Source of the DNA: Alphaproteobacteria bacterium
GTDB taxonomy: Bacteria; Pseudomonadota; Alphaproteobacteria; JASGCL01
Reading direction: 5' to 3'
Assembly (NCBI GenBank): GCA_965262775.1
Contig: CBDHFT010000005.1
Coordinates: forward strand, 17,760-81,759
Length of the DNA: 64,000 bases
Shown here piece after piece: positions 29,366 to 56,852 of this stretch (position 1 is the first letter of the stretch; each line of letters starts with the position of its first letter). Made by a program: the position numbers and the translations under genes. The notes under the pieces are model-generated. The model made no database searches and had not been told where the DNA came from. It saw only the letters and a program-made list of their open reading frames with translations.

Positions 29366-29408
29366 GCTTTATCTTTTATAGATTTTAAACAAGATTACAA
29401 GAATTTTT

Positions 29409-30470
29409 ATGCCACGCTCGACCCCCCGCTCAACCTCCCCCGTAACTCGCTCGCCTTTTGTTGCGGTTATCATGCCTGCCTACAACGCCGAAAAATATAT
29501 TAGGAAGTCCATCGATTCTATCCTCCACCAAACCTATCAAAATTTAGAACTGATTATTATTGACGATGGTTCCCAAGACAACACGGCAAACATTATCCAA
29601 TCATACAAAGACCCAAGAATACAATATTACAAAAATAAAAAAAATTCTAAAGAATGGTTCTCGCGGCAGGTGGGCCTCCAACAAGCCCTCAACAACAATA
29701 AGGTTGATTATATCGCCTGGCAAGATGCTGACGATATGGCCGCCCCCACCAGGATTGAAAAGCAGTTATCATTTTTGCAACAACATAAGAAAATTAACCT
29801 GGTCGCAACCGACATGATAATTATCGATGACCATGAACAAAAAATAAAAACGGTAAGCAACACCGCCGCCAATGCCGCGTTGCATCGCCAACGGTTATTC
29901 TGCCCAACCATGATGTTTGATAAAAAAATACTTACCGCCTTGCCCATGCCGTTTTTTCGCCCCCTGCCCATTGGCACCGACATTGATTTTCTTTACCGTG
30001 TTATGGAAAAAAATTGGGCGGCGGGGAGCATCCCCCAGCCGCTCTATCATTATCGCCGCAGCAGCGAGCAAACCACTGCCTTCCATCTTCTATCCTTATT
30101 ATACGGCGAATTGGTGCGTTATTCGGCCTATAGCAGGCGTCTGTTGGGTAGCGACTTGCTGCCTATTTCTGATGACCAGCTGTTAACGAGTAAGGATTTA
30201 CCACGCGCCTTCGCCCCATTTATAAAACAAAAAAAATTGAGCAACATCCATAAAATTTTTATTCGGCGTTTTGTCATCGGGCAACTCTATGCCATCATCA
30301 AAAATCCTATCTTGCTTTTTCGTCACAGCCAGATTTTATTTTCTATCTATTTTTTATTATGGCGTTATCAACCATGGCTATCCATCATTCATGGTTTTTA
30401 CGCCTTGCCGCGCAACATTGTAAGTTTTATTTATTGCTTAGCCAATAAAAAAGATTTTTTTGTTGAGTAA
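29409..30470 (+). CDS. family 2 glycosyltransferase
   Basis: VAVIMPAYNAEKYIRKSIDSILHQTY then IIIDDGSQDNT is the GT2 N-terminal DXD-containing consensus. Confidence 0.75.
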   Translation: MPRSTPRSTSPVTRSPFVAVIMPAYNAEKYIRKSIDSILHQTYQNLELIIIDDGSQDNTANIIQSYKDPRIQYYKNKKNSKEWFSRQVGLQQALNNNKVDYIAWQDADDMAAPTRIEKQLSFLQQHKKINLVATDMIIIDDHEQKIKTVSNTAANAALHRQRLFCPTMMFDKKILTALPMPFFRPLPIGTDIDFLYRVMEKNWAAGSIPQPLYHYRRSSEQTTAFHLLSLLYGELVRYSAYSRRLLGSDLLPISDDQLLTSKDLPRAFAPFIKQKKLSNIHKIFIRRFVIGQLYAIIKNPILLFRHSQILFSIYFLLWRYQPWLSIIHGFYALPRNIVSFIYCLANKKDFFVE

Positions 30471-30493
30471 GCTGCGTATCTTTGTTCGCCGTT

Positions 30494-30527
30494 GCTTGCG
30501 CAAGATTTGACTTCTTGCGTAAGATTT
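30494..30527. repeat. 15-bp direct repeat CTTGCG(C/T)AAGATTTG, two copies, in the kup upstream region
   Basis: Copies at 30494-30508 and 30513-30527 match at 14 of 15 positions. Each contains a palindromic TTGCGCAA-like core. Confidence 0.4.
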
Positions 30528-30650
30528 GCTATTTGCAACTAGGAGAATTTATTTATTTTTATTTTTTAAAAAAAATTAAAGACATAGTTATTTTATTTCG
30601 GACGAAATATTTTTTATTATTCGTCGCCAACATGTCTTGCCACAACGCCC

Positions 30651-32543
30651 ATGTCTACCTCTTCGCACAAATCTCAGGGATTCTTAGGCCTCAGTTTTCT
30701 TTCTTTGGGGATTGTTTATGGCGACATTGGCACCAGCCCGCTTTATGCCTTGCAAGGCATATTTAATCAAACAACAGGCATTGGCTTAACCCCCGATAAT
30801 ATCGTGGGCGCCATTTCTTCCATCCTTTGGGCCTTAATAATTACCGTTTCGTTGAAATATGTTATGTTCGTGTTGCGCGCCGATAATCGGGGGGAAGGTG
30901 GCATTTTAGCCCTGCTGACGCTGGTTTCTTCGGTCGTACGCAAAGATACCATGCCCTACACTATATTTATTTTTTTGGGTATGTTGGGCGCGGCCTTATT
31001 TTTGGCCGAGAGTGTTATCACGCCATCCATTTCAGTGCTAGGCGCGTTGGAAGGATTAAATTATGCCCCCGCCTTGCAAAATATAAATTTTAATATCGTT
31101 GGTATTGCCGTTCTGATTTTACTTGGGCTTTTTTATGCACAACGCAGTGGCACCGCAAAAATTGGCAATTATTTTAGCTACATCATGGTGCTGTGGTTCC
31201 TTACTTTAGGTTTTTTTGGTTTTTTGAGTATTATGAAAAATCCAACGATATTATCGGCCATTAACCCGCTTGTTGCTGTCCATTTTTTATACGGTGAGGG
31301 CAAAATTCTATTTGTTGCTCTAAGCGGTATTGTGCTTGCTGTCACTGGGGTGGAAGCATTATATGCCGACATGGGCCATTTGGGGCGCAACCCAATTCGC
31401 TTTGCTTGGACATTGTTTGTCTTGCCATCTCTAGCCCTTAACTACCTTGGTCAAGGGGCCGAGCTGTTGCTTGACCCAGAAGGCTCGATTGTCAATCCTT
31501 TCTACCATCTTTTTCCTCAGCATTATGTTCTCCCTGCGGTTATTCTTGCCACTTTTGCAACAATCATTGCCTCGCAAGCTGTCATCTCTGGCACTTTTTC
31601 CATGACGCGTCAGGCTATCCAACTTGGGCTTTTGCCACGCCTCAACATTATCCATAAATCACCCAATGTCATTGGCCAAATTTATATTCCTTTAATTAAT
31701 TGGCTGTTATTTTTCTTCGTGTTGCTAACAACTATTATATTTCAAAGCACCCATAACCTTGCCTCGGCCTATGGTATTTCCGTTACCCTTACCATGACCA
31801 TTTCTTCCATCTTGCTCTACCAAGTTGTAACCAAACGTTGGCATTGGAAAAAATGGATCGCCATTCCTGTCATCGGATTCTTTTTATTGTTTGATTTGTC
31901 CTTTGCCATTTCCTGTTTAGGAAAATTATGGCACGGCGGGTGGTTTACGATTTTGCTAGCCGCCCTGGTTATGGTGTTGGTGATAACCTGGCGCCAGGGC
32001 AAAGCCATTTTAATGCGCGTTATGCGTAGCGAGGCTTTTTACCTGGAGCCTTATATCAAAAGTTTGATGAGCCGAAAAAAATTCCCATCGGTCGAACGCA
32101 CCGCCATTTATTTGGTTGAAAATACGGATTCGGTGCCTTCGGCGTTGGTTGATAATTTGAAGCATAACATGGTGTTGCACAACCGCAATATTTTTCTTAC
32201 CGTGGAATTCACCACCGCCTCCATCGTGCCCACTGCTCACCGTTTGGAAGTAAAAGAAATGATGACGGGTTTTTGGCAAGTGAAGGTTCGTTATGGTTTT
32301 ATGGAACACCCCGATATTACCTCCATCATTGCTTTGCTTAAACAACGTGGCCTAGCGTTGGATATGCAAAAAACATCCTATTTCATGAGCCATCAAACAA
32401 TTGTTTCCACCCATATTTATGGTATGGCGCGTTGGCGCGAACAAATATTTTCTTGGATGTATCGCAATTCCAATTCGATATTCGAATATTTTGATATTCC
32501 CCCCAGCCAAGTGGTCATCTTGGGTTCGCGGATTCAAATATAA
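30651..32543 (+). CDS. kup: KUP/HAK/KT potassium uptake transporter
   Basis: LSLGIVYGDIGTSPLY is the Kup N-terminal signature. 12 TM helices plus a C-terminal cytoplasmic domain. 630 aa. Confidence 0.9.
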   Translation: MSTSSHKSQGFLGLSFLSLGIVYGDIGTSPLYALQGIFNQTTGIGLTPDNIVGAISSILWALIITVSLKYVMFVLRADNRGEGGILALLTLVSSVVRKDTMPYTIFIFLGMLGAALFLAESVITPSISVLGALEGLNYAPALQNINFNIVGIAVLILLGLFYAQRSGTAKIGNYFSYIMVLWFLTLGFFGFLSIMKNPTILSAINPLVAVHFLYGEGKILFVALSGIVLAVTGVEALYADMGHLGRNPIRFAWTLFVLPSLALNYLGQGAELLLDPEGSIVNPFYHLFPQHYVLPAVILATFATIIASQAVISGTFSMTRQAIQLGLLPRLNIIHKSPNVIGQIYIPLINWLLFFFVLLTTIIFQSTHNLASAYGISVTLTMTISSILLYQVVTKRWHWKKWIAIPVIGFFLLFDLSFAISCLGKLWHGGWFTILLAALVMVLVITWRQGKAILMRVMRSEAFYLEPYIKSLMSRKKFPSVERTAIYLVENTDSVPSALVDNLKHNMVLHNRNIFLTVEFTTASIVPTAHRLEVKEMMTGFWQVKVRYGFMEHPDITSIIALLKQRGLALDMQKTSYFMSHQTIVSTHIYGMARWREQIFSWMYRNSNSIFEYFDIPPSQVVILGSRIQI

Positions 32544-32602
32544 GCCAACTGATATTTCCTAGAAAAAAAATAGCTAGGCTATTGCTTCAAATATAAAGGA
32601 GG

Positions 32603-33952
32603 CTACTTGCCCGCGACCGTCATACCGTCGATGCGTAGGGTTGGGGAATTGTGATGATGAATAAATTCTAAATCGTTGGCGGGCGTCATATTCATAAACA
32701 TTTGGTTCAAATTGCCCGCGACAGTCATTTCATTAACGGCGTGCGATATTTGCCCATTAATAATCCAAAAACCGCTGGCCCCTTGCGAATAATCACCCGT
32801 GACGCCATTGACACCAAACCCCATCAGGCTGGTTATATAAAAGCCCGCCTTGATATCGGCCATCAATGCGGTGGGCGATATTTTTCCCGCAGCAATATGA
32901 ACATTGCTAAGGGCGGGATAAACCCCCGTTAAGCCGCGGTGCGCATGACCCGTCGGTGGTAATTGCAGTTGCCTTGCCGAAGCCAAATCAAGCACGTAGC
33001 AAGTTAAAACCCCCTTATCGATGATATTTCTCTTGGCGGCGGGCAAGCCCTCGCCATCATAAAATTGCGAAGCAAATCCCCTTTTTTGTAAAGGGTCATC
33101 AACCATGGTTATGCCCGTCGCCATAACCTGTTGCCCTAACTTGCCTTGCAAGAAGCTTGTGCCTTTGGCTAACTTTTGGCCATTGATGGCTGAGGCCAGG
33201 TTGCCTATCATGCTGGTCGCAACTCGTGGGTCCAATATAATGGGGTATTGCCCCGATTTTTCTTGCCTGGCCCCCAATTGTGCCGCGGCCCGTTTGGCCG
33301 CGCTGACGCCAACTTTTTCTGGCGGGGTCAAATCGCCAAAAAAAACCTTGCTGGAATAATCATAATCGGCTTCCATATTTGTGCCATCGCTGGCAATCAC
33401 CGAAATGCCCAAGGAATAATGCGAATGTTTTTCTTCACCCCTAAAACCATTGGAAAAGGCAAACCAATCTTGTTGATGACCAAAGGAAACGCTCGACCCT
33501 TCGGAATTAACTATGTTTTTTTCACCGCGCGCCGCATCCTCTATCTGTTTCGCAACCGCTTGCATTGCTTCGGGTAATAATTCGGTTTTATCAAATGTTT
33601 CAAGGTCTTGCACCGCGCCATTTTTGGCGGCGTGGTAAAGTTGTTCGGGGCTTGCCTCCCCCGCAAATGGGTTGTCGGGTAAAACCTTCGCCATCGCCAA
33701 CAATTTGTCTAACAGCGGTTCGATAACATCCATCGTTTTGCCATTGCTGGTAACCGCCGATTCTTTCTGCCCCACTCTAATTTTTATTCCCAACACTTCT
33801 TGTTCGGCGCGTTCGCTTTCTTCAACCTTGCCCATCCTCACCTGTTGGCTTTGGTTAAGCGACTTGCTCAACACCACTTCGGCGGCATCGGCACCCTTGG
33901 CTTTTGCCAATTTGATAACATCGTCAAAAAAATTAAAAATATCGGCTGTCAT
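32603..33952 (-). CDS. pmbA: TldD/PmbA-family metalloprotease
   Basis: 449 aa. The PmbA_TldD fold motifs GFASQFYDGEG and HAHRGL, plus the overall length, favour PmbA over TldD. Confidence 0.75.
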   Translation of the reverse strand: MTADIFNFFDDVIKLAKAKGADAAEVVLSKSLNQSQQVRMGKVEESERAEQEVLGIKIRVGQKESAVTSNGKTMDVIEPLLDKLLAMAKVLPDNPFAGEASPEQLYHAAKNGAVQDLETFDKTELLPEAMQAVAKQIEDAARGEKNIVNSEGSSVSFGHQQDWFAFSNGFRGEEKHSHYSLGISVIASDGTNMEADYDYSSKVFFGDLTPPEKVGVSAAKRAAAQLGARQEKSGQYPIILDPRVATSMIGNLASAINGQKLAKGTSFLQGKLGQQVMATGITMVDDPLQKRGFASQFYDGEGLPAAKRNIIDKGVLTCYVLDLASARQLQLPPTGHAHRGLTGVYPALSNVHIAAGKISPTALMADIKAGFYITSLMGFGVNGVTGDYSQGASGFWIINGQISHAVNEMTVAGNLNQMFMNMTPANDLEFIHHHNSPTLRIDGMTVAGK

Positions 33953-33985
33953 GGTCGAATCAGGGTCTTATCATGTTGCATGGCG

Positions 33986-34318
33986 TTAATAAGTGGCGAT
34001 GCTATTATCTACCTGCAAAGCATATTGATGAATGCCCCCGCTTATGTTTTTGCAATCGTAGCCCTGCTTTTGCAAATATTGGCATACCATGGCCGAACGG
34101 CCACCGTGATGACAAAAAACATACAGGGTTTCATCCTTGGGCAATTCGTCAAGTCTGTCGGTTATTTCATTCATGGAAATATGTTTGGCACCTTTTATGC
34201 TGGCCATGGCTACTTCGTTTGCTTCGCGCACATCCAGCAAAAATACATCTTGCGCCGCCATTATTTTGGCTAGCTCGGCTACCGAGACAGTGGGAATATT
34301 GACAGCCGTATCGTTCAT
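33986..34318 (-). CDS. single-domain rhodanese (sulfurtransferase)
   Basis: Active-site loop CHHGGRS with catalytic Cys. 110 aa. Confidence 0.75.
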   Translation of the reverse strand: MNDTAVNIPTVSVAELAKIMAAQDVFLLDVREANEVAMASIKGAKHISMNEITDRLDELPKDETLYVFCHHGGRSAMVCQYLQKQGYDCKNISGGIHQYALQVDNSIATY

Positions 34319-34332
34319 CTTAGCAATAGTTT

Positions 34333-35064
34333 TTAAGAAGCCATGCGGTCCATGTTGCCGCTGGAATAATGTTGAGGATTGGCAAATTCCGCCATGATGG
34401 GCAACCCCGCCACCTGTCCAAAATAATTAATTTTGCCATTTTTTTCAATCCGCACCAAATTAGCCAATTGATTTTTTTCTTGCGGGGATTTTTTATCCTG
34501 CAGGCTGGTCAACAACGCGCCATGTTCATCCAATTGTGCCAATAATTTTTCAGGAATAGCAGGCAGCGACCCCAGCACAATGATAGATTGGTAAGGAGCA
34601 AATTTTTTGCAACCTTCGGCAATGCTTCCTTCCGCATCGACAATTGTAAAATTGCTTTTAAGAATCATTTTTTTTATTTTGTCGCAAGAACTTTGCAATG
34701 CAAAAACATTCACCCCCATCATGGCTAAAATATTACATTCATAACCATGCCCGCCGCCAATGACCAAGGTTTTATGGCCAGGTTGCAAATTAGCATGTTG
34801 CAGTAATAAACCAGCGGCGGTGGGCGACAATGATATTCTACCCCCTTCACACATTACGCATTTATCGCTATAGGCGCGTTTTTTTTGGTCTATCGTATCA
34901 TCCATAAATTCTTCGCGATTAACATGCAAAAAACCATCCAGCAGCGCGGAATCAATCACGCCCGCTGGCATCAATTGCCCTTCTATCATTTTTTGTCTTT
35001 TTATAATTGTCATTTTTATACCCTGGGTTGGTTTTAATAATTTTCTATAGTCTATTTGTATCAA
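34333..35064 (-). CDS. protein-L-isoaspartate O-methyltransferase-like SAM-dependent methyltransferase
   Basis: SAM-binding motif I LVIGGGHGYECNILAMM. The size and layout resemble Pcm. Confidence 0.5.
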   Translation of the reverse strand: MIQIDYRKLLKPTQGIKMTIIKRQKMIEGQLMPAGVIDSALLDGFLHVNREEFMDDTIDQKKRAYSDKCVMCEGGRISLSPTAAGLLLQHANLQPGHKTLVIGGGHGYECNILAMMGVNVFALQSSCDKIKKMILKSNFTIVDAEGSIAEGCKKFAPYQSIIVLGSLPAIPEKLLAQLDEHGALLTSLQDKKSPQEKNQLANLVRIEKNGKINYFGQVAGLPIMAEFANPQHYSSGNMDRMAS

Positions 35065-35558
35065 GGTTGGAAGGTATTTTGTAGCGGATTTTGTTGCACG
35101 GGATTGATGGGGTTAACCTTATTTTTATCTTTGCCGTAACGTCCAAAATTGGTAACCAATTCTTGTAGGAATGATTTATCACGCGCAACGGTTGGCGTGG
35201 TATCTTTCGACACCGATAATTTAACTGCATCCTCCCCCGTGAAGCGTTTGTAGCCTAAGTAAACCCCTTGGTCGCTTAACTTTATTTGATAAACCTCTTG
35301 GTCGGCGAAGCTTGGCGATAAGAAGCCCCATTGATTTCTGGTCTGGCTGAAATAATACCATATACGTTTGTCGTAATTGGAAAAACTGGTTGGCGTGCCA
35401 AGGTTGGCAAGCACATCGTTGTAGGTGCTTTTTCCAACTTCTAACATTTCTAATTGATAATCCTTCACCACCTGACCGCGGCGCAATGTTTCGGCGCAAG
35501 CCGACAACCCCACAAGCAAGCACAACAACAAAAGCAAAGAAAAAAAACGCTGGGTCAT
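35061..35558 (-). CDS. bamE: outer membrane protein assembly factor BamE (SmpA/OmlA lipoprotein)
   Basis: Signal peptide with a lipobox LSAC. The stretch KSTYNDVLANLGTPTS matches the BamE fold consensus. Confidence 0.65.
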   Translation of the reverse strand: MTQRFFSLLLLLCLLVGLSACAETLRRGQVVKDYQLEMLEVGKSTYNDVLANLGTPTSFSNYDKRIWYYFSQTRNQWGFLSPSFADQEVYQIKLSDQGVYLGYKRFTGEDAVKLSVSKDTTPTVARDKSFLQELVTNFGRYGKDKNKVNPINPVQQNPLQNTFQP

Positions 35559-35607
35559 AGGTTATGTATATATTCTTTCTAAGAATTTGACGAGTCAAAA
35601 ATAGCAG

Positions 35608-36502
35608 TTACAAATGGAAGCTATCAAGGACAAAATGCGGCGTCGCATCATAAGTCTTAAATAAATTTTCCATCCGTTGTTTGTCTATGCCATGATAAAA
35701 ATCCGCCGCATGAATGCCACCCAAAATAAACAAAGAATCAATCTCGGCCAACCTCGCCCCCGCAATATCATGCTCAAGGCTATCACCTATCCCAATTATT
35801 TTTTTTGCGGCGGGGAAATTCCTGCTTGCACATATCGTAAACTTCTTTGGCTGGTTTGCCAAACCTTACAACATGGCCACCCTGTTCTTCATAATATTTT
35901 GCTAAACTGCCTGGGCAAATTTTTAATGACCCGTCGGGCATGTTGGCCACCATATCGGGGTTGGTGCATAACATGGTGATATTTTTTTTTATCCCAATGT
36001 CCATCTCCTCTTGATAGGCTTCCAATGTGCCACGCCCCGCACCCGCCGCCAAGATAATATCGGCTTCTTCAACCGATTCGGTGATGATAAAGCCCAAGTC
36101 ATCTATGGCACGATGGTCATCGTCAAATCCCCAAAACAGTAATTTTTTCTTATCGCCCGTTGCAATATTTTTTGCCAAGGGGTGTTTTTTATCTATCAAC
36201 CATTCGCGCGCCGCCTGGCCCGAACTGATAACCTTATGGATAGCGTCCATGTTGAAACCCATTCTGCCTATCAATTTATGGGAATGGCTGGCTAACTTAC
36301 CCGAATTAGAAAGGACAATAATTTTTGTGCCTGCTTCATACAGCGCGGCCACGGCATCCACCGCGCCACGAAATGGCACCACCCCATTATGCAGCACGCC
36401 CCATTGGTCAATAATCGCCAAATCGTAATGGCCTAGAATATCTTTTATGCCGCTTAAAATTCTTGTCATGCTGTTGTTTGTCTTGTTGTTTTCCTTAATC
36501 AA
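35608..36502 (-). pseudogene. HAD-superfamily subfamily IIA hydrolase, split by a frameshift in a T8 run (about 35798-35805)
   Basis: ORFs 35783-36502 and 35608-35862 overlap. Together they give a contiguous HAD-IIA homologue (DQWGVLHNG ... KIIGIGDSLEHDIAGA). Confidence 0.6.
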
Positions 36503-37698
36503 ATCGATGGCAAGGGCAAGCGCGCCAAGCGCGTTTGCTTATCAAACATTTTTCCCATGACCAATGATACGCCATGCGGTAAATTATTATAAATCTGTTC
36601 ATTATCAACATTAAATACCATCATCTTTAACCTCAATTTTTCTAAAGACAGGACTTTCTCCGCCATGAGTTCGTAGCCCATTTTTTCCTGCAGGAATTGC
36701 AAGTTATCAAAAGAAGATAAATAAAAATCTATCCCCGTGCGTAATAATAGCGACGGATCATCATCCAATATCGGGTTGAGCAAAGTTGTGTTGTCGTTGG
36801 TATAAAGCATCGCCAATTTGATTCCTTCCGAATTTAAAAATTGGCAATTTTCAGCATGACGGTAAAGCCCCGCGGTAAATGGCAAAATGAAAACCATACG
36901 GCTAAAGGCCCTTGCCAACCCTGGGTTTGAAATTTTCTGTGATTTTAAAAAACTTTTGAGGTCATTCATGAAGCCCTTCTCGTTCAGGGCGCGTTCGGAC
37001 AGGGGGAAAAAGCAATAGGGCAAATTATTGACGTGCGAAGATTTTTCGTGGCTGCCTTCTTCGACTTGGAAGCCATCTTGAAATACTTTTTGCCAATAAA
37101 AGCGCAAGGTTTCCAATAATAAAATTTCGATATCACCCGCCACGGCATCTTTGGGACTGGCATTAATAATACTGGCGGTGTCAATACCCTGACCATTGGG
37201 GTATTCGATAAATCCTTGGCAATAATAACCTTTCAATTGGCGGGTTTTTGTATCCACCACGTCATGCCCTATCATGACCAGGGCCAACCCCCCCGTTAAC
37301 AATTCGTTCTGGTAAGCATTTTTAAAAATATCCTGCATGGCATTAACTTTTTTGCTTGGAACTTTTTTGGGTTCACTGAATTCTGGCATCACGGCACTGG
37401 GGCTTGCTTTATGTTGCGTGGCGCCAAGATTAGAAGCCATGCGGTTTGAACTAGCCGAGGACGACCTATCGGTTGCACCAGCGCGGGCATGCGGCGTAGC
37501 ATGAAGTTCGGCAACCGACCTTCTGCCCTTTCCCCGACTCGCCAACAGCAAATGCAAAAAGGATAAGCCAAGCCATGTCAGGCCACAATAAATAACGATG
37601 TTATATAAATCTAACTGAGAATAAAAATAAAAGCTTAGTCCTAGCAATAAGACAAGTGCAAAATAAAAAAATATATAAAGGAAGTTTTTTCTTAACAT
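36499..37698 (-). CDS. hypothetical membrane-anchored protein with no recognisable family
   Basis: Two N-terminal TM helices, a Ser/Ala-rich linker, then a roughly 300-aa domain with no motif I can place. The gene overlaps the HAD gene start by 4 nt. Confidence 0.45.
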   Translation of the reverse strand: MLRKNFLYIFFYFALVLLLGLSFYFYSQLDLYNIVIYCGLTWLGLSFLHLLLASRGKGRRSVAELHATPHARAGATDRSSSASSNRMASNLGATQHKASPSAVMPEFSEPKKVPSKKVNAMQDIFKNAYQNELLTGGLALVMIGHDVVDTKTRQLKGYYCQGFIEYPNGQGIDTASIINASPKDAVAGDIEILLLETLRFYWQKVFQDGFQVEEGSHEKSSHVNNLPYCFFPLSERALNEKGFMNDLKSFLKSQKISNPGLARAFSRMVFILPFTAGLYRHAENCQFLNSEGIKLAMLYTNDNTTLLNPILDDDPSLLLRTGIDFYLSSFDNLQFLQEKMGYELMAEKVLSLEKLRLKMMVFNVDNEQIYNNLPHGVSLVMGKMFDKQTRLARLPLPSI

Positions 37699-37775
37699 GA
37701 TAATACCAGCACTAATGATTAGATGGGAAAGAGATAAAATAATAATCTATTGTTATCAATCCTCCACCATGTATC

Positions 37776-38349
37776 TTATTCCATGTCATCATCCCTATTT
37801 GATTTTCTTTTATTCACGGCGCGTTGGTTGCCAGTCAAAAAACTAGGCAGGTCTTCACCATTGGCATTTTCATTGCCCGACGATTCTTCGTTATCGTTAT
37901 CATCAACATAACGCACAACGCCGCGACTCATCATCCTTACATCGCCGCCATTACCGCCGCGCATGCCGCCAGAACGTGGCAAAGGTTGTTGCGAATCGTT
38001 ATCGCCATAATTATCAGATGACATACCGTCATCGTCGCTCGGTTTAAATTGTCCCTGATGCTCGGTTATCAGCCGTTGATAATGTTCGGCATATTGCAAA
38101 CAAGCCTCCGCCAATACTCTATCACCATCTGACATGGCTTCTTTAGCCAACCACAAGATATTTGTCCATGATCTGCATCGCGTTACCACGCACCCTGCCC
38201 AATGGGCCATTTGAATCCATTTGTTGTCGTAAGGGATTTCTTACCACGGCGCTGCTTTGTCTGCTGCCGCCACCGCGACCACGATTTCCACCACCACGGT
38301 TACCACCGCCGCGACTGCCATGACGGCGCCAATTATTCTGTCTTTGCAT
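37776..38349 (-). pseudogene. DUF4167-family protein split by a 1-bp insertion
   Basis: ORF 38143-38349 encodes the Gly/Arg-rich N-terminus and the FDSNGP-like box (MDSNGPLGRVRGNAMQIMDKYL). ORF 37776-38210 continues it in the +1 frame (LAKEAMSDGDRVLAEACLQYAEHY). The shift lies within the ccaacc at 38147-38152. Confidence 0.55.
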
Positions 38350-38691
38350 TATTTTTTCTATTTAGTCCGATTATTATTGAGTTTTAGTTTTTCATGGTTG
38401 GTTTTCTTAACCAACTTTTTCTAGAATAATATAAATTCTAAAAAAATATTAAACCAATGATTAACAATGAAGATATTTTAATATTTAGCTGTGCCTAACA
38501 GATTATCAACAATCTATAATACAATTTTTTTTTAGTTATAACATAAGCAAGTTATGATACAACCATTGGTTAGCCCAAAAAATATCTATAACAAGCAAAT
38601 ACCGCAAACCAACACCCCTGTCAAGCAAAATTTAAAAAAAGTTATTGCTTAAATTTCTAACATTAATCTTTCGGGACGTTCGAGCAAATTT

Positions 38692-39801
38692 TTAAACCTC
38701 GGTCAGGAAGCTGACGGCTTCCCTGCCATCGATGATGCGATGGTCGTAAGATAAAGCAAGGTACATCACGGGGGCGATGGCTATCATGCCGTTTTTAACC
38801 ACGGCGCGTTCTTGTATCTTGTGCATGCCCAATATAGCCGATTGTGGCGGGTTAAGAATGGGGGTTGATAACATCGAACCAAAAATACCGCCGTTGGTAA
38901 TGGTGAAGGTGCCGCCCGCAAGGTCGGCCAGGGTTAATTGTCCGCCCTCGGCCTTGATGCCAAACTCCGAAATTGCCTTTTCGATAACAGCGAATGATTT
39001 TTTATCGGCATCTTTTAATACTGGCACCACCAAACCCGTGGGTGAGCCAACCGCGATACCAATATCGTAATAATTTTTATAGATAACCTCATTCCCCGAA
39101 ATTTCAGCGTTGACTATCGGAAAAGATTTGAGGGCCGCACATACCGCCTTCACAAAAAAACTCATGAAGCCCAATTTTGTGCCATATTCTTTTTGAAAAC
39201 GTTCGCGATGCAATTGGCGCATTTCTATCAATGACGACATATCAACCTCGTTAAAGGTGCTTAAGGTTGCCGCGTTGTTTTGTGAATATTTCAACCGCCT
39301 GGCGATGGCTTCGCGCAGTTTGCTCATCTTAACTCTTTCCTCCCCCCGTTCATCGGTCACGTGGGGGGGCATGTGATAGGTTTGCACCTGTGGCATGGGC
39401 GTCAATTGAGCTGGCGATTGCAGCGAGGTTGGCGCAGCGGATGGCAAACTATCTTCTGATGCTTCTTTCATTTTTTTATTATGAGCCGATTCATCCAATT
39501 TTGCTGGCGAAGTTGCCACGGGGGCTTCCATTGCTTTTTTTGGTTTATTATCGGCGGTGGCTATCGCATGTTCGTCGATGATTCCCAATAAGCCACCAAC
39601 TTGAACATCGTCGCCCTCTTTAACTTGCCATTGGGTCAACACCCCGTTTTCGGGGGCTATCACTTCTAAACTTATTTTTTCTGTATCTAACAGGCAGAGG
39701 TTGTCATCTTTTTTCACGCTGTCGCCTGGCGCCACCAACAACTTCGCAACGCGTGCCGACATAATCGACTCACCCAACGCGGGAACCTTCACTTCTATCA
39801 T
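38692..39801 (-). CDS. sucB: dihydrolipoyllysine-residue succinyltransferase (E2 of 2-oxoglutarate dehydrogenase); the last ~17 codons are replaced by TEV-stop through a 1-bp insertion
   Basis: The lipoyl domain and the catalytic DHRIIDG motif are intact. The conserved tail KNLLERPERLMLEI-stop is readable in the +1 frame and ends at 38649. The ancestral CDS was therefore 38649-39801. Confidence 0.8.
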   Translation of the reverse strand: MIEVKVPALGESIMSARVAKLLVAPGDSVKKDDNLCLLDTEKISLEVIAPENGVLTQWQVKEGDDVQVGGLLGIIDEHAIATADNKPKKAMEAPVATSPAKLDESAHNKKMKEASEDSLPSAAPTSLQSPAQLTPMPQVQTYHMPPHVTDERGEERVKMSKLREAIARRLKYSQNNAATLSTFNEVDMSSLIEMRQLHRERFQKEYGTKLGFMSFFVKAVCAALKSFPIVNAEISGNEVIYKNYYDIGIAVGSPTGLVVPVLKDADKKSFAVIEKAISEFGIKAEGGQLTLADLAGGTFTITNGGIFGSMLSTPILNPPQSAILGMHKIQERAVVKNGMIAIAPVMYLALSYDHRIIDGREAVSFLTEV

Positions 39802-39817
39802 AATTCTTTTTCTATCA

Positions 39818-42800
39818 CTATTTTAGTGCCTCGGCAATGATAGTTTGTTGTTCAAGGTTATGGGCCTTCGCCGAACCGACGGCGGGGCTGGCGGCCTCGC
39901 GCCGACCGATATACAATAGATCTTGTTGCGGCGCGTTTAATTGGCGCAGTAATTTTTCTATAAGCGGGCGCACGAATGACCACGCGCCGTTATTTTCGGG
40001 TTCTTCTTGGCACCAAATAAATTGCGCCTGCCGACATTTTTCCATAATGGCTTTCAGGCTTTCATCGGGGAACGGGTATAATTGCTCCAACCTCACGATA
40101 GCAATATCCTTGCGCCCGCTGTTTTCGCGCCCTTGATAAAGGTCATAATAAATTTTTCCCGAACATAAGATAACTTTGGCAAATTTATCGGGCGCAACCA
40201 ATTGCCCCGCGGTGAAGGCATCGTCGGGCAGGATACGCCGAAAGGACGACCCCGTAGCAAAATCATCTAGGTTAGAAACACAAAGCGGATGACGCAGCAG
40301 CGACTTGGGGCTCATCACAATAAGTGGTTTGCGAAAGTTCCTTTTGATTTGGCGGCGCAAGGCATGAAAATAATTGGCGGGCGTGGTGATATTACATACT
40401 TGCCAATTATCATCGGCGGAAAGATTCAAATAACGTTCCAACCTGGCGGAGGAATGCTCTGGCCCTTGCCCCTCATAACCATGGGGCAACAACATGACCA
40501 AGCCACACATTTTAAACCATTTGGTTTCGCCCGCCGCAATAAATTGGTCAATAATCACTTGCGCGCCATTGGCAAAATCGCCAAATTGCGCTTCCCACAA
40601 TATTAAAGCATGGGGCTCGGCGCAGGAATAACCATATTCAAAACCCAACAACCCAAATTCGCTTAAGCGGGCTATTAATAACCTCTATCTTGCTTTGCCC
40701 CGCGCGCAGGTGGTTAAGCGGCACGTAGGACGCGCCCGTTTTTTGGTCCGACCACACCGCATGGCGATGAGAAAAAGTGCCGCGCTCCGAATCTTCGCCC
40801 GACAATCTAATCGGTATCCCCTCGAGCAGTAGGCTACCAAACGCCAAACCCTCGGCCATGCCCCAGTCAATTTTTTTACCTTTTTCCACGCTCAATCTTT
40901 TTATTTGTAGCGACGTAGCAATTTTTGGGATGCAAAGCAAAGTTGGCGGGGGCTTGGGTAATCTTGCTGGTTATTTCTTGTATAACATCGCTTTCGACCG
41001 CGGTGGTGCCTTTCCTCTTGCCCCCTTCGGCCATGGTCAAACCGTGCCAGCGCCCTTCCAACCAATCAACCTTATTTGGTTTAAAATCCTTGGCAAGGGC
41101 TAAGGCATTTTCTAAACGCTCGTTAAAACTCTTGCTTATCTCTTGCACTTCTGAATCGCTAAAAATATGTTCGGCCACCAATTTCTTGGCGTAAATATTA
41201 CTTAGGCGCGGATGTTCCAAAATTTTTGATACATCAAAGGTTGGGTAAAAAATGGCTCGTCGGCTTCGTTATGGCCATGGCGGCGATAACAATAAATATC
41301 GATAACAATGTCCTTTTTAAATTTTTGCCTATATTCGACAGCCAATTGCGCGGCGCGCACGCATACCTCAGGGTCGTCGCCATTAACATGCAACACGGGG
41401 GCATCTATCATTTTGGCCATGTCGGTGCAGTAGGGCGATGACCGACCGTCTTTCGGCACCGTGGTGAAACCTATCTGGTTGTTGATGGCGATATGGATGG
41501 TGCCGCCCGTGCGGTAACCCTTTAGCTGCGATAATAAAAAAGTTTCTGCCACCACCCCCTGACCAATGAAGGCCGCATCGCCATGCAACAACACCGCCAT
41601 CACCTTCTCTTTTTATCGTCGTTTTTTTGTTTTTGCTTGGCCCGCACCTTGCCCAACACCACGGTGTTAACCGCTTCAAGGTGGCTGGGGTTTGGCGCCA
41701 GGGAAAGGTGAACCGTGCGTTGTTCGCCATTGGGGGTATTAACCACCATGTCATGGCTAGCCCCGATGTGATATTTTACATCGCCCATCTGTGGCAGGTT
41801 ATCGGGGGTGACACTGCCGCCATAAAATTCATAAAATATTTGCCGATAGGGTTTACCCAAAATATTGGCCAGCACATTCAATCGGCCGCGATGTGCCATA
41901 CCAATATCAACCTCTTCTATCCCCAACTCGGCACCGCGGGTGATGATTTCCATCAACACGGGGATGGTGCTTTCGCCGCCGTCTAAACCAAACCTCTTTG
42001 CGCCCTGGTATTTTTTATCCAAAAAACTTTCAAACATTTCTGCATGAACTATCTGCTGATAAATCGATTTCTGCTTGTTGGCGGTTAGGCTTTTGCCCGC
42101 ATAATCCGCCTCGACCTTTTCTTGCAGCCAGAGTTTTTCATCGGGGTCCTGCACATGCATGAATTCGATAGCAAAACGACCGCAATAGGCCTTGCGACAA
42201 ATAGCAATAATATCTTTTAACCTTGCGCTTTCTAACCCCAAATAATAATTGATATAGATTGTTTTTTCCAAATCCTCTTCGGTGAAGCCGTGCGAGCGAT
42301 AATCCAATTCTGGAAAATTTATTTTTGGCGATAGTTGCAACGGGTCAAGGTCAGCCTCCAAATGGCCACGGGTTCTGAAGGCACGAATGAGCATGATGGC
42401 GCGTATAGAATTAAGTCGCTCCGCCACTTCGCGCTCGCCCATCACCCCTTCTATCACCTTTTGATCGCTGAGGTAACGGCTCAAACTATCTTGTAAATTT
42501 TCGCCGCGCACCATGCCCGATAACAAAAAATCGGAAAGGCTCTTGCCAAATTTTTTATGCACGCCGATAACCGCATCTTTTTGCGCCGCGCCGTTGCTTG
42601 GTTTCCGCGCCCACGATGGTTGATAACTGCTGGCGTTGGTAAAATATTGTTCATTGCCATTGCTGGGGTCGGATTGCGCTGAAACTGGGTTTGCGTCATC
42701 CACCCCATCCATGGCGGCAAACACCTGTTGCCAATCCGACGCTACCGAGGACGGATCTTGTAAATAGCGTCTATAAATATCAAAAATATAGGCCTCCCCG

Positions 42801-42988
42801 CCCTGCAGGCCAGCCTGCAAACCCGCTTGTAAAATATCTTGCAAGTTTCCATTCCTATTCGCCTGCGCCGTGCCCCCTGGGTTAGCGTCCAAACTTCCTA
42901 CTGCCTTTGCTTGCATCGCGCCGTTAGCGGGCAAACCAGGTTTAGGGGAAGCATCGCCACCATCTAAAATATCATTATTCTGGGTCAT
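39818..42988 (-). pseudogene. sucA: 2-oxoglutarate dehydrogenase E1 component, broken into five ORFs by four single-base frameshifts
   Basis: The fragments 41600-42988, 41202-41603, 40876-41220, 40638-40940 and 39818-40651 are each colinear with consecutive segments of E. coli SucA ([43 protein letters not shown]). Each junction is a 1-bp indel. Confidence 0.8.
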
Positions 42989-43134
42989 ATATTTATATTA
43001 TTCAATAAGATACGGCATTCTTGCGTTGCAACCATTCTTCATGCAATCTTCTTTTTATATTGTGTATTTTTCGATAAATTGCACCAAAGAGGCACGATTG
43101 CGCGCAGGTTTTGCGATAGGAAACATTATACCAT

Positions 43135-44012
43135 TTATTTATTCAAAAGGGAAACCATGGTTTGCCCCATCAAATGCTGGGGCGGGCGCCACGGCAATAC
43201 CCGCCGAACGCAGGGCTTCGATTTTGACGCGGCGGTGCCCATGCCCCCCGCGACAATAGCCCCAGCATGCCCCATGCGCTTACCCGCAGGGGCCGATAAC
43301 CCCGCGATGAATCCGACCATGGGCTTTTTAATCTTGGATCTTTTATAAAATGCGGCAGCCTCCTCTTCTTCCCCGCCGCCTATTTCGCCTATCATAACAA
43401 TGGCATCGGTATCTTTATCAGCCAAAAACATTTCTAAACAATCAATGAAACTTAAACATGCACAGGGTCGCCGCCAATCCCCACGCAGCTGGATTGCCCC
43501 AATCCCGCTTGGGTGGTTTGCCACACCGCTTCGTAGGTTAAAGTGCCCGAACGCGAAACAACCCCAACCTTGCCCGGTTGATGAATAAAGCCAGGCATGA
43601 TGCCAATTTTGCATTGGCCTGGCGTAATGACACCCGGGCAATTGGGTCCCAACAAAATTGTTTTGCTGGCCTTCAGTTTTTCTTTCACCCTAACCATATC
43701 CAGTGTCGGGATGCCTTCGGTGATACAAACCACCAACCTTACATCGGCATCGATGGCTTCAATAATGGCGGCGGCGGCAAAAGCGGGTGGCACATAAATG
43801 ACCGAGTTGCCTCGCAACCAGTTTTCTCTTTTTGCCTCCGCCACGGTATTAAAAACGGGTAAACCCAAATGACTTTGCCCGCCTTTCTTCGGCACCACGC
43901 CGCCAACCATCTTGGTGCCATATTGCATGGCTTGCTCGGTATGGAACGAGCCCTGCAACCCCGTTAGGCCCTGGCATATTACTTTAGTGTTTTTATCAAC
44001 CAATATAGACAT
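43135..44012 (-). pseudogene. sucD: succinate--CoA ligase alpha subunit, split by one frameshift near 43455-43475
   Basis: The N-terminal ORF ends ...GIGGDPVHV-stop. The downstream ORF resumes at [25 protein letters not shown] in another frame. Confidence 0.8.
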
Positions 44013-44036
44013 TTCTTTTTTTTATTTTATTTGCCT

Positions 44037-45224
44037 TCACATTTTTTTTGCGGCATCGCCCAGGTCGCTTGCGGTAATAATCGGTAAACCAGAATCTTGT
44101 AATAGTTTTTTGCCTAACTCGACATTGGTTCCTTCCAACCTTACCACCAACGGCAAATGCAAATCCTTCATGCCGTGCAACGCGTTGATAATTCCTTTGG
44201 CAATAATATCGCACCGCATAATCCCGCCGAAGATATTAACCAATATTCCTTTTACATTTTTATCCGACAAAATAATTTCGAAGGCTTTCTTGACTCGTTC
44301 CTCGGTTGCGCCGCCGCCGACATCTAAAAAATTGGCGGGCGACGCCCTTCCTGCTTAATAATATCCAATGTCGCCATGGCAAGCCCCGCGCCATTCACCA
44401 TGCAGCCTATGTTACCATCCAGCTTGATATAACTTAGGTCATGCTTGGCGGCTTCGCGTTCCATCGGTTCTTCTTTCGGCGGCGTCGCGCAATTTTTCTA
44501 TATCGGGGTGTCTGAATAATCCATTGTCATCGAAACTTATTTTTGCATCAAGCAATACCAACCGATTATCTTGGGTTAAAATCATGGGATTAATTTCTAT
44601 CAAGGAACAATCTTTTTCTAAAAATACTTTGAACAAACGCTCATAATTTTTTCCCAGACCGCCCACGACCGAGGATGGCAAACCTAAGTTCTGCGCCGCC
44701 TGCGCCGCCATGGTGCTATCGATTGGTTTATTGATGTCCAAAGGAATTTTGAAATTTTGTCGGGTGTGTTTTTCTGCAACCTCCTCTATATTCATGCCGC
44801 CCGCTGGCGACAGCACAAAAATCGGCGTTGCCGAAGCACGGTCAATCAGCAGGCTTAGGTAAAATTCCGCCTTAATGTCGGCTCCCTCCTCGATATACAA
44901 ACACTGGACTTCTTTGCCCAACGCGCCAGTTTGCTTGGTCATCAGGGTATGGTGCAACATGGCTTCGGCGTTTTTCATCACCTCCGCGCTTGTCTTGACC
45001 ACGCGCACCCCGCCTTTTTCATTCTCTTGTCCTTTAAAATGCCCCGCGCCCCTGCCCCCTGCGTGAATTTGCGCCTTCACAACGAATATTTTATTTCCTG
45101 CAATTTTTTGCAATGCCGCGGTGGCTTTTTCTACCTCATCCAGGCTTCTTATCGCTACGCCATGTGGCGCGGGCAAGCCGTAAGCTTTTAATATTTCTTT
45201 GCCCTGATATTCATGAATATTCAT
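44037..45224 (-). pseudogene. sucC: succinate--CoA ligase beta subunit with two frameshifts about 150 nt apart
   Basis: N-terminal ORF 44439-45224 and C-terminal ORF 44037-44270 are separated by a stretch that reads as conserved SucC sequence ([47 protein letters not shown]) only in a third frame. The shift sites are at ttctttc (about 44471) and ggcggg (about 44335). Confidence 0.8.
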
Positions 45225-45260: not shown

Positions 45261-46223
<963 letters not shown>

Positions 46224-54686: not shown

Positions 54687-54773
54687 CGCCTGACAATATA
54701 CAATTCAACAGGAAGGCGCAAATGGTTTTTATAAAATTTAAAATTTTAATTTCTAGCGATAGCAAAATTGGTT

Positions 54774-54789: not shown

Positions 54790-54825
54790 TTTGCAAATTG
54801 TAAAAAAATCCCCTATAGAAAAAAA

Positions 54826-55671
54826 ATGCCCCACGAAAAATTACAAAAAATCATTGAAACCGCTTGGCAACAACGCGACGCTATAACCCCCGACAAACAT
54901 GACGCGGCGGTAAAATCGGCGGTTGATGAAGTTCTCAACCTCCTTGATGCTGGCACATTGCGCGTCGCCGAAAAAACGGGCGACAAATGGCATACCCACC
55001 AATGGTTAAAAATGGCGGTGCTGTTGTCTTTCAAATTATCCCCTAACAAGGTTATCAAGGGCGGCAGCGGCGGCGGTTGGTTCGACAAGGTCGATTCCAA
55101 ATGGCTGGGGTGGGATGAATCTTCTTGGCAGAAACATGGGTTTCGTGCCGTGCCCAACGCCGTGGTGCGCCATTCGGCTTACATTGCCCCTTCGGTGGTG
55201 TTGATGCCGTCGTTCGTTAATGTCGGGGCCTATGTTGATTCGGGCACCATGGTCGATACTTGGAGCACGGTTGGCTCCTGCGCCCAAATTGGTAAAAATG
55301 TTCACCTGTCGGGCGGGGTGGGCATCGGCGGGGTATTGGAACCATTGCAAGCCAACCCCACCATTATCGAAGATGATTGCTTCATCGGCGCCAGGGCCGA
55401 GGTTGCCGAAGGTGTGGTGGTCGGCAGGGGTTCGGTCCTTGCCATGGGTGTTTTTTTATCCGCCAGCACAAAAATTATCGACCGCGCCACGGGCAAAATT
55501 TACACGGGCATGGTGCCGCCCTATTCCGTGGTGGTGTCGGGGTCGTTGCCATCGAACAAAACAATGGCCGACGGCACACCAAGCCCCCATTTATATTGCG
55601 CGGTGATTGTGAAACAGGTGGATGAAAAAACCCGCGCCAAAACATCCATCAATGAATTATTGCGCGATTAA
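54826..55671 (+). CDS. dapD: 2,3,4,5-tetrahydropyridine-2,6-dicarboxylate N-succinyltransferase
   Basis: Left-handed beta-helix hexapeptide repeats are visible. The N-terminus [18 protein letters not shown] is DapD-like. 281 aa. Confidence 0.85.
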
Positions 55672-55694
55672 TAATAATTCATTATAATCGCCGC

Positions 55695-56852
55695 ATGGAA
55701 ACCTCGGTCGCCGTTAATATTGCCAAGCAACTTATTGCTTGCCCGTCGGTCACGCCGCGCGATAAAGGCGCGATGAAGGTTCTAACCGATTTCCTAGAAC
55801 CATTGGGTTTCGTTTGTAATATTTATGAATTTGGTGACGGCATCCACCGCACAAAAAACCTCTATGCAAAATGGGGCAGCGGCGAACCCAACCTATGTTT
55901 TGCTGGCCATGTGGATGTTGTGCCGACGGGCGATGAAACAAAATGGTCGGCCCCGCCGTTTTCCGCCAACATCAAAGATAATTTTTTATATGGCCGCGGC
56001 GCGTGCGACATGAAGGGTGGCATTGCTTCATGGTGCGCCGCCATAGAAAATTTTTTGCAGCAACATAAAAACAAATCGATAAAAGGCTCCTTGTCCATGC
56101 TCATAACGGGCGATGAAGAAGGCCATGCCCAATTTGGCACAAAAAAATTGTTAGAAGCCATCGCCAGCAAGGGAGAAAAACTATCGGCCTGCATAACGGG
56201 GGAGCCAACCTGCCCCGAGCGATTGGGCGACATGGCAAAAATTGGTCGCCGCGGTTCTTTGACGGGCGTGATTAAGGTAAACGGCACCATGGGGCATACG
56301 GGCTATCCGCAACTTGCTGATAACCCTATCCCCCGCCTGCTCGATATGTTGCAGATATTAAAAAATTGGCAAATAGATAAAGGCAATGAAAAATTCGAAC
56401 CCAGCCAATTGGTCATCACCACCATCGATGTCGGTAACAAGGCCGATAACATCATTCCCAGCCAAGCCAGCGCGCAATTTAATATTCGTTTTAACAACGA
56501 CCAAACCAGCGAAGGTTTGATGAAAAAAATTGAATCGATGTTTTCAGATTTTGATAAAAAAAAATGGAGCATTGCTTGGCGCGCCAATTGCGAAAGTTTT
56601 TTAACCCCCGAGGGCACCCTGTCTAACAAATTGCAAGCCGCTATAAAAAAAATCACGGGGTTGGATGTTCAATTAACCACCCTTGGCGGTACGTCGGATT
56701 CGCGTTTTATAAAAAATTATTGCCCCGTGTTGGACTTTGGTCATGTTTATAAAACCATCCACCAAGTTGACGAACGGGTGGCGACGAAAGACCTTGATGA
56801 CCTCGCCAAAATATATTATGAACTCATGGTTGATTATTTCGGGGCTGTTTAG
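55695..56852 (+). CDS. dapE: succinyl-diaminopimelate desuccinylase
   Basis: M20 peptidase metal-ligand motifs (GHVDVVP, the catalytic D in GACDMKGG, and GDEEGHA). 385 aa. It sits adjacent to dapD. Confidence 0.85.
   Translation: METSVAVNIAKQLIACPSVTPRDKGAMKVLTDFLEPLGFVCNIYEFGDGIHRTKNLYAKWGSGEPNLCFAGHVDVVPTGDETKWSAPPFSANIKDNFLYGRGACDMKGGIASWCAAIENFLQQHKNKSIKGSLSMLITGDEEGHAQFGTKKLLEAIASKGEKLSACITGEPTCPERLGDMAKIGRRGSLTGVIKVNGTMGHTGYPQLADNPIPRLLDMLQILKNWQIDKGNEKFEPSQLVITTIDVGNKADNIIPSQASAQFNIRFNNDQTSEGLMKKIESMFSDFDKKKWSIAWRANCESFLTPEGTLSNKLQAAIKKITGLDVQLTTLGGTSDSRFIKNYCPVLDFGHVYKTIHQVDERVATKDLDDLAKIYYELMVDYFGAV

Follow-up and report, generated by a model that had tools for sequence, protein, structure and literature searches.

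The frameshifts that split the genes for succinyl-CoA synthetase and 2-oxoglutarate dehydrogenase in this DNA are probably errors in the deposited consensus and not mutations of the organism. Within the window, by which we mean the whole stretch of 64,000 nucleotides analysed, the lesions exist, are bound to position and consist of indels only; their technical cause is inferred from these properties. Shift sites were placed by aligning the window with its sister genome L001 (OZ241918.1), which shares ~93% nucleotide identity with the window and carries all four suc genes intact. The features concerned are the following.

45261..46223, minus strand: mdh (malate dehydrogenase), intact, 320 aa, with Ldh_1_N and Ldh_1_C at full length and no indel relative to L001.
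44022..45224, minus strand: sucC (succinate--CoA ligase beta subunit), in ORF pieces 44439-45224, 44324-44464 and 44037-44270.
43135..44012, minus strand: sucD (succinate--CoA ligase alpha subunit), in ORF pieces 43452-44012 and 43135-43641.
39818..42988, minus strand: sucA (2-oxoglutarate dehydrogenase E1), in ORFs 41600-42988, 41202-41603, 40876-41220, 40638-40940 and 39818-40651.
38649..39801, minus strand: sucB (E2 dihydrolipoyllysine succinyltransferase), ORF 38692-39801, with a stop 14 codons early.
37776..38349, minus strand: DUF4167 gene, not of the TCA cycle, in ORF pieces 38143-38349 and 37776-38210.
36499..37698, minus strand: gene for a conserved 399-aa protein, intact, with no Pfam match, positioned alike in L001, L080, L081 and L082.
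35608..36502, minus strand: HAD-like hydrolase gene, not of the TCA cycle, ORF stop at 35783, with the C-terminal Hydrolase_like domain in another frame.
35815..44768, no strand: lesion cluster, 18 frameshifting indels in ~9 kb, with none in the flanks.
54790..56849, plus strand: dapD and dapE (succinylase branch of diaminopimelate synthesis), intact (TIGR00965 positions 2-269 of 271, NF009557 positions 5-375 of 377).

The five sucA pieces tile the SucA equivalog profile of NCBIfam, NF006914, in order, at positions 18-337, 342-467, 470-570, 562-657 and 655-917 of 919. Together they match the profile over its whole length, and with four frame changes between them no single ORF exceeds the curated cut-off of 764 bits, the pieces scoring 335, 249, 49, 120 and 449 bits. 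Similarly, the sucC pieces match NF001913 at positions 1-241, 242-284 and 306-380 of 388, the sucD pieces match NF004230 at positions 1-184 and 182-265 of 291, and neither gene forms a single full-length ORF; despite this splitting, the identity of both is beyond doubt. In SucB, 2-oxoacid_dh (PF00198) is matched at positions 2-219 of 232, which falls short of the expected lipoyl domain (PF00364) plus a complete catalytic domain with its C-terminal segment, and the last 14 residues are out of frame: the tail KNLLERPERLMLEI is readable only in the next frame, at 38649-38693. The DUF4167 profile is likewise divided between separate ORFs (positions 1-42 and 45-77), and in the HAD-like gene the Pfam domain Hydrolase_6 lies in 35783-36502 and Hydrolase_like in 35608-35865. 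The original prediction had the gene identities and the order mdh-sucC-sucD-sucA-sucB right, and mdh is intact as it had said; it had also named an artefact as the alternative. The mdh gene is also the upstream edge of clean sequence.

At the level of single sites, sucA is cut into its five ORFs by four 1-nt indels, just as had been predicted, at ~41614 (-1, A6 to A5), 41227 (-1), 40929 (+1) and 40668 (+1); their net effect is zero, and the projected gene has 0 stops. The +1/-1 shift described for sucC was found at ~44476(+1)/44347(-1), and two further compensated pairs had been missed, 44768(+1)/44754(-1) and 44655(+1)/44638(-1), the second of which comes from the blastn alignment only, MAFFT aligning the same region gap-free. 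These short pairs convert the conserved TPEKI to HTRQN and EKIMGG to GKNYER. In sucD, the one predicted shift corresponds to an uncompensated -1 at ~43457, and two compensated sets had gone unnoticed, 43833(+1) with 43808(+2) and 43225(-1)/43178(+1); the projected SucD protein is identical to that of L001 at 286/292 residues, with 0 stops. When the window is aligned together with both L001 and L166, every sucC and sucD indel that appears as a gap is window-specific, as was recorded individually for those at 44768, 44754, 44476 and 44347. The sucB C terminus is indeed lost to a 1-nt insertion, at ~38696 (+1, GGTT to GGTTT), which truncates the ORF at 38692, 14 codons early; SucB of L001 has 387 aa. 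The shift positions named beforehand lie within 5-30 nt of the alignment-placed sites. Two +1 indels, likewise missed, fall just downstream of the suc genes, one in the DUF4167 gene at ~38152 and one in the HAD-like hydrolase gene at ~35815 (C3 to C4). Four further indel pairs in the blastn alignment (44729/44724, 44589/44584, 39431/39425 and 36655/36649) were left uncounted, because substitutions explain them equally well or better.

The lesions track position, not function, because all 18 fall in 35815-44768 and break two unrelated genes too, DUF4167 and HAD-like. With these two genes hit, the claim that damage was confined to the suc block does not hold. All 18 of the frameshifting indels lie within 9.1 kb, out of 29.3 kb of coding sequence in the alignment (P = 7e-10), and the coding DNA of the flanks, aligned to the sister lineage over 20.2 kb, contains no frameshifting indel. 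The intact gene for the 399-aa protein (36499..37698) sits within the cluster. Elsewhere in the window, ~50 other genes are full length, and nearly all of those that match a family do so end to end in NCBIfam (UvrA, PheST, Rho, Era, HisS, IspG, Kup, RpoN, DapDE and others). The only partial NCBIfam match among them is a CDF transporter at 3696-4277, which was rejected as a further frameshift: no out-of-frame remainder lies downstream, and a tRNA-His gene is found there. Overlapping same-strand ORF pairs (era/rnc, pheS/pheT and the genes at 33.9-35.6 kb) were also rejected as frameshifts, each ORF being a separate full-length gene.

The process behind the lesions is indel-only. There are 11 insertions and 7 deletions, of which 17 are of 1 nt and one is of 2 nt; ~13 of the 18 lengthen or shorten runs of 1-6 nt, and in a run-length census none fell in the 11 runs of at least 7 nt. 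Substitution density relative to L001 is 6.2% in the cluster and 5.0-5.6% in the flanks, and at 5.76% it is the same within 15 nt of an indel as elsewhere. A low-quality patch carrying errors of all kinds is not supported on this ground, there being no substitution excess near the indels. The combination found here, single-base indels that mostly change homopolymer length, without a rise in substitutions, distributed by position and independently of function, is that expected of an error patch. Long-read errors, for the most part short homopolymer indels, are a recognised cause of gene fragmentation (PMC12007338), whereas the indels of real bacterial pseudogenes follow power-law sizes with an excess of deletions, 1-nt deletions making up 131 of 396 (PMC6054270).

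The main alternative is that a real and very recent pseudogenisation, in this lineage only, has spread neutral 1-nt indels over the suc genes and two dispensable neighbours and left the TCA cycle incomplete. We consider this unlikely, although several observations are in its favor. Reading frames are disrupted relative to functional orthologues, as in pseudogenes, several lesions per gene give the look of dead genes, all lesions are derived in the window lineage, and the small sister genome (1.63 Mb) would fit a reduced, possibly host-associated lifestyle; documented multi-indel pseudogenes occur in young symbionts (PMC6054270). On the other hand, the coding sequence around the lesions otherwise looks fully selected. 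When the interrupted genes were projected on L001 and the indels removed, 0 in-frame stops or nonsense substitutions remained, which bears out the original prediction that no stops lie between the shift sites. The corresponding dN/dS values relative to L001 are 0.092 for sucC, 0.023 for sucD, 0.095 for sucA and 0.144 for sucB, against 0.036-0.149 for intact neighbours; the DUF4167 gene gives 0.015, mdh 0.075, the 399-aa protein gene 0.082 and dapD 0.067. Third codon positions carry most of the changes (3/2/45 over positions 1/2/3 in sucD), and the 5 indels of sucD stand alongside a total dN of 0.006.

Polarised amino-acid changes in the suc genes number 19 in the window lineage and 13 in L001, a slight surplus that favors real decay and is not significant (binomial p = 0.38). 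In control genes the numbers are 7 for the window and 12 for L001 (suc versus control, Fisher p = 0.15). Neither a raised dN/dS nor a significant excess of non-synonymous change in the affected lineage was found in the interrupted genes, and the spectrum of natural inactivation, with nonsense substitutions, multi-nucleotide indels and an excess of deletions, was likewise not seen; events that are nearly all of 1 nt, with more insertions than deletions, are unlike those of natural pseudogenes (PMC6054270). Also against real decay, 15 indels in the 6.6 kb of suc genes accompany ~6 excess amino-acid changes, an indel-to-substitution ratio of ~1 or above. Mutation-accumulation studies give a ratio of ~0.1-0.2. 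The natural ratio is nevertheless hard to fix, given the intergenic gap events, and this counts against the error reading. Intergenic alignments between the window lineage and the L001 lineage contain many such events.

Real decay would also have had to break unrelated genes within 9 kb while leaving ~50 other genes and mdh untouched, and it would have removed both sources of succinyl-CoA. The sucAB and sucCD genes represent two routes to this compound, which is required for the synthesis of meso-diaminopimelate (PMC10943122). The succinyl-CoA-dependent dapD is intact in the same window and under constraint, as is an intact dapE, and a real loss of the two succinyl-CoA routes conflicts with the presence of both (PMC10943122). 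It is rather improbable that a burst of indels over ~9 kb has just inactivated 2-oxoglutarate dehydrogenase, succinyl-CoA synthetase and two neighbours while dapD and dapE were kept. The proposal of relaxed selection on this segment, with an incomplete TCA cycle and host dependence, is not supported by the same evidence: dN/dS resembles that of neighbours, 19 versus 13 is not significant, genes other than suc are broken, and dapD and dapE are intact.

Comparison with the orthologous operon in sister genomes, which had been put forward as a check, showed intact copies in the relatives, with the sucC and sucD gaps specific to the window. In L001, L166 and L082 (93-94% nucleotide identity to the window) and in L080 and L081 (~77% amino-acid identity in SucA), all covered genes are intact and their order is conserved. 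L001 and L082 carry an intact DUF4167 gene of 190 aa, L080 and L081 one of 206 and 173 aa, respectively, and the HAD-like hydrolase is intact in the relatives at 286-332 aa. Four relatives hold the block under strong constraint, a further point against real decay. The Logan contigs L082, L084, L085 and L166 fall on the L001 side, with 96.8-99.1% identity to L001 and 93-94% to the window. A genome scan for an assembly of the same lineage returned only the sister L001 at 93% identity, searches at the protein level with SucA and SucD after frame correction found nothing closer than the sister lineage, a metagenome scan gave no match above 55% identity, and a literature search on the accession numbers gave no match. 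The proteins of the window, suc fragments included, are recorded from one NCBI/ENA contig of 110,216 bp only and from no Logan short-read assembly, which agrees, though weakly, with a recent long-read metagenome bin. That the 9-kb block is foreign or recombined was rejected, as its dS (0.15-0.33) and substitution density are as in the flanks.

Four pairs of neighbouring indels, 14-47 nt apart, restore the reading frame, which exceeds random expectation at P = 0.003 with uniform positions and at P = 0.076 with fixed positions and shuffled signs. This over-representation could reflect a mixture, in which the short sucC and sucD pairs are real compensated frameshifts fixed in functional genes and the uncompensated lesions stem from consensus error or from a second, very recent phase of decay. 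The sucC pair at 44768/44754 fits such an origin, in that a single inserted C and a single deleted T are its only differences from L166. However, the pairs overwrite residues that are conserved across relatives (TPEKI in SucC and a stretch of 15 residues in SucD), the genes in the 20 kb of flanking sequence contain no compensated indel pair, and the pairs share a cluster with uncompensated lesions, for which one cause is more economical. We therefore give the mixture only a slim chance.

It is also conceivable that the proteins are expressed despite the shifts, by programmed ribosomal frameshifting or transcriptional slippage. The coding sequence is perfectly conserved on either side of each shift and one of the sites (~41614) is in an A run (A5), as recoding would allow. 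However, corrections would be needed in both directions (+1 and -1), no slippery motif is common to the sites and all of them are outside runs of at least 7 nt, and in the relatives each of these proteins comes from a single ORF, with no conserved recoding signal. The intact orthologues in relatives effectively refute programmed frameshifting and slippage, and we give recoding almost no credence.

To return to consensus error, the stretch at ~35.8-44.8 kb appears to have been called from far weaker read support than its surroundings. It may, for example, be a gap between better-covered parts that only one long read or a few span, or a patch that escaped polishing. Single-base indel errors at ~0.2% in such a stretch would, where they hit coding sequence, split sucC, sucD, sucA, sucB and the DUF4167 and HAD-like genes. 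Several points count against this explanation. The clean flanks require the error source to be local, which is an assumption. Independent random errors leave the compensating pairs unexplained, and these could be real selected compensation. Finally, there are recently host-restricted symbionts whose real pseudogenes carry several frameshifts and little substitutional decay (PMC6054270).

Taken at face value, the frameshifts would lead to a genome annotated without 2-oxoglutarate dehydrogenase and succinyl-CoA synthetase, and modelled as TCA-incomplete and host-dependent. This conclusion is unwarranted from the present record and should not be drawn. The case instead offers a read-free template for telling an error patch from a young pseudogene: whether lesions follow position or function, whether dN/dS rises once indels are masked, and whether nonsense substitutions and multi-nucleotide deletions are present. 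Real lesions would show the death of an operon at an unusually early point and would pose the puzzle of how the cell obtains its succinyl-CoA. A real burst would point to one of two things: a local mutational process specific to indels, with the frame partly compensated in sucC and sucD, or host dependence for metabolites derived from succinyl-CoA, seen at the very first step of operon decay.

Among known systems, Buchnera and Blochmannia use poly(A) transcriptional slippage to rescue frameshifted genes, which requires the lesion to sit in an A tract of at least ~9 nt. The window shares with them frameshifted genes whose coding sequence is otherwise conserved, whereas its lesions lie in runs of at most 6 nt at heterogeneous sites. 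The pseudogenes of host-restricted bacteria, namely the leaf-nodule Ca. Burkholderia (PMC6054270) and Sodalis glossinidius (PMC3091646), resemble the present genes in having several indels per gene, a recognisable orthologue and functional copies in close relatives. In contrast, pseudogenes occur throughout those genomes and here in one block; those genomes show a deletion excess with power-law sizes, and here 17 of 18 indels are of 1 nt and insertions exceed deletions. The dating of their pseudogenes relies on faster non-synonymous change, and no such acceleration was detected here. Errors in long-read and hybrid assemblies (Kastor; PMC12007338) are scattered over the whole assembly, whereas the lesions here occupy one stretch of ~9 kb in an otherwise clean 64 kb. 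In other respects the two are alike: 1-nt indels, mostly changes in homopolymer length, split genes into adjacent ORFs in different frames with no substitution signal, and are detected against intact orthologues (PMC12007338).

The window carries, on the minus strand between 35.6 and 46.3 kb, mdh, sucC, sucD, sucA, sucB, a DUF4167 gene, a gene for a 399-aa protein, a HAD-like hydrolase gene and bamE. The gene order xerC-mdh-sucC-sucD-sucA-sucB-DUF4167-unknown-HAD-bamE-pcm-rhodanese-pmbA is common to the window and two more distant relatives, L080 (GCA_030054115.1) and L081 (GCA_051010635.1), and is also found in the close sister genome L001 (OZ241918.1, chromosome of 1.63 Mb). In the window, sucC, sucD and sucA are divided into three, two and five ORFs, respectively, and sucB stops 14 codons early, with its tail KNLLERPERLMLEI present in the next frame. 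Because the ORF pieces tile the NCBIfam equivalog profiles of SucA, SucC and SucD consecutively, the original prediction was correct in describing three split genes and an out-of-frame sucB tail beside an intact mdh.

Genes of this region other than the suc genes
45261-46223, minus strand: mdh, intact, 320 aa
37776-38349, minus strand: DUF4167 gene, +1 at ~38152
36499-37698, minus strand: conserved 399-aa protein, family unknown, intact, between the broken DUF4167 and HAD-like genes
35608-36502, minus strand: HAD-like hydrolase, +1 at ~35815

Lesions were called by aligning the window with L001, which is ~93% identical in nucleotide sequence over 35248-56251; coordinates were placed within short runs. 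Comparison with the orthologous operon of sister genomes had been proposed as a check, and all four suc proteins were found intact in L001 (SucC, 400 aa; SucD, 291; SucA, 1048; SucB, 387).

Frameshifting indels relative to L001
sucC, minus strand: 44768 (+1)/44754 (-1); 44655 (+1)/44638 (-1); 44476 (+1)/44347 (-1)
sucD, minus strand: 43833 (+1) with 43808 (+2); 43457 (-1); 43225 (-1)/43178 (+1)
sucA, minus strand: 41614 (-1); 41227 (-1); 40929 (+1); 40668 (+1)
sucB, minus strand: 38696 (+1)
DUF4167 gene, minus strand: 38152 (+1), outside the block originally described
HAD-like gene, minus strand: 35815 (+1), outside the block originally described

These amount to 18 events, with insertions (11) outnumbering deletions (7); 17 involve one nucleotide. 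The 44655/44638 pair comes from the blastn alignment only, in which two indels and 4 mismatches stand in place of ~10 mismatches; MAFFT aligns the region without gaps. A third close lineage is represented by L166, a Logan assembly of run SRR13639653 with 96.8% identity to L001 and 93.3% to the window. Its sucC and sucD are both intact, and it shares the L001 state at each sucC and sucD site gapped in the three-way alignment, indicating that those indels are window-specific. The DUF4167 and HAD-like genes are intact in every relative covering them. The low-complexity N-terminus of SucA (42840-42930) shows many small length differences from L001, and the sucB linker shows in-frame ones (39425-39504; -3, -9); both look like ordinary variation of unconstrained segments and were excluded from the lesion count.

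The Logan assemblies L082, L084, L085 and L166, from three runs of a single series (SRR13639653-55), are close relatives of OZ241918.1 at 96.8-99.1% identity, a spread that implies at least two strains. The window's own lineage was absent from all three runs, and a literature search found no paper mentioning the runs. No independent assembly of this lineage was present in the genome, protein and metagenome collections searched.

Widening the sister-lineage comparison with L082 (window 25403-38955) brought the aligned coding DNA to 29.3 kb. Every one of the 18 frameshifting indels fell within 9.1 kb (35.6-45.3 kb), with none in the 20.2 kb of flanks (P = 7e-10 under a uniform rate), where gaps were confined to ORF ends or were 3-7-nt pairs that are really substitutions. 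Thus, the lesions form one physical patch, which takes in two genes unrelated to the TCA cycle and leaves mdh and the initial 456 nt of sucC untouched. The intact mdh of the original prediction was confirmed, but the DUF4167 and HAD-like genes outside its block are also frameshifted. We consider a local consensus-quality artefact to be probably the best explanation of the frameshifts. Real, extremely recent decay of the suc block is unlikely; it would require confinement to 9 kb together with effects on functionally unrelated neighbours.

Nearly all other window genes that match an NCBIfam family do so end to end. A single gene matches in part: the 194-aa cation-diffusion facilitator encoded at 3696-4277 (minus strand) covers only profile positions 2-196 of 285. 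No out-of-frame remainder was found downstream, where a tRNA-His gene (3556-3632, plus strand) fills the gap. L082 also conserves both members of a divergent glycosyltransferase pair (28337-30470).

28337-29365, minus strand: glycosyltransferase with a family-10 (fucosyltransferase-like) C-terminal domain
29409-30470, plus strand: family-2 glycosyltransferase

Indels were removed by projecting the window sequence onto the L001 reading frames. As the original prediction had stated for the stretches between shift sites, in-frame stops were absent; this held for all six broken genes. Their dN/dS values (sucC 0.092, sucD 0.023, sucA 0.095, sucB 0.144, DUF4167 0.015, HAD 0.061) compare with 0.036-0.149 in 10 of the 11 unbroken genes, the exception being the 123-aa g1 (0.575, from 12 differences only), and third codon positions hold the overwhelming share of differences. 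Amino-acid changes polarised with L080 and L081 numbered 19 window-specific and 13 L001-specific in the suc genes (p = 0.38, not significant), against 7 and 12 in three control genes (contrast p = 0.15, not significant). With dN/dS in the range of neighbouring genes and no significant excess of changes, the relaxed selection proposed for the suc genes was not borne out. Substitution density was 6.2% in the patch versus 5.0-5.6% outside, and was the same near indels as away from them (5.76% both); sucD combines five indels with a total dN of 0.006. The process behind the indels made essentially nothing else, and real decay would have to be an indel-only mutational process.

Succinyl-CoA, a requirement for the synthesis of meso-diaminopimelate and lysine, is supplied by the two routes that sucAB and sucCD encode (PMC10943122). 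The window retains the succinylase branch.

54790-56849, plus strand: dapD and dapE, full-length overlapping pair, succinylase branch of diaminopimelate synthesis

DapD depends on succinyl-CoA, and its gene has a dN/dS of 0.067. Loss of both routes with dapD and dapE kept is possible in a host-dependent cell, but is not the economical reading. Two LysA-like decarboxylase genes are also present, one of them truncated by the window edge (2-598) and the other at 20925-22085. Between rpoN and dapD, a gene without NCBIfam or Pfam match (53721-54704, minus strand) encodes a product 34% identical to its positional counterpart in L001 (1523-2530), and shows no detectable DNA similarity to it, although the neighbouring genes are ~95% DNA-identical to theirs; it looks fast-evolving or replaced.

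In four places (44754-44768, 44638-44655, 43808-43833 and 43178-43225) the reading frame is restored by a second indel 14-47 nt from the first, and such pairs are more frequent than random placement predicts (P = 0.003 with uniform positions; 0.076 with signs shuffled over fixed positions). The short pairs overwrite SucC and SucD residues conserved in all relatives, as in SucC, where AEKTPEKIFK becomes AEKHTRQNFK. Neither simple random error nor neutral decay accounts for these pairs, which could reflect real compensation or some structure in the errors. Recoding was ruled out, as the sites are heterogeneous, corrections of both signs would be needed and the orthologues each occupy one ORF.

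A run of 1-6 nt changed length in approximately 13 of the 18 events, and another four or five inserted a different base; the 11 runs of at least 7 nt in these genes were all unaffected. The lesion density (18 per ~9 kb, ~0.2%) falls within the range of one high-accuracy long read, or of a consensus with very thin coverage. Real decay would also require insertions to outnumber deletions and events to be almost exclusively of 1 nt. In a curated set of real bacterial pseudogenes, by contrast, deletions exceed insertions (396 vs 300), sizes follow a power law and only 131 of the 396 deletions are of 1 nt (PMC6054270), whereas in the window 11 insertions face 7 deletions and all but one event are of 1 nt. 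Long-read errors, a known source of spurious gene fragmentation, are predominantly short homopolymer-associated indels (PMC12007338), comparable to the run-length changes that predominate here.
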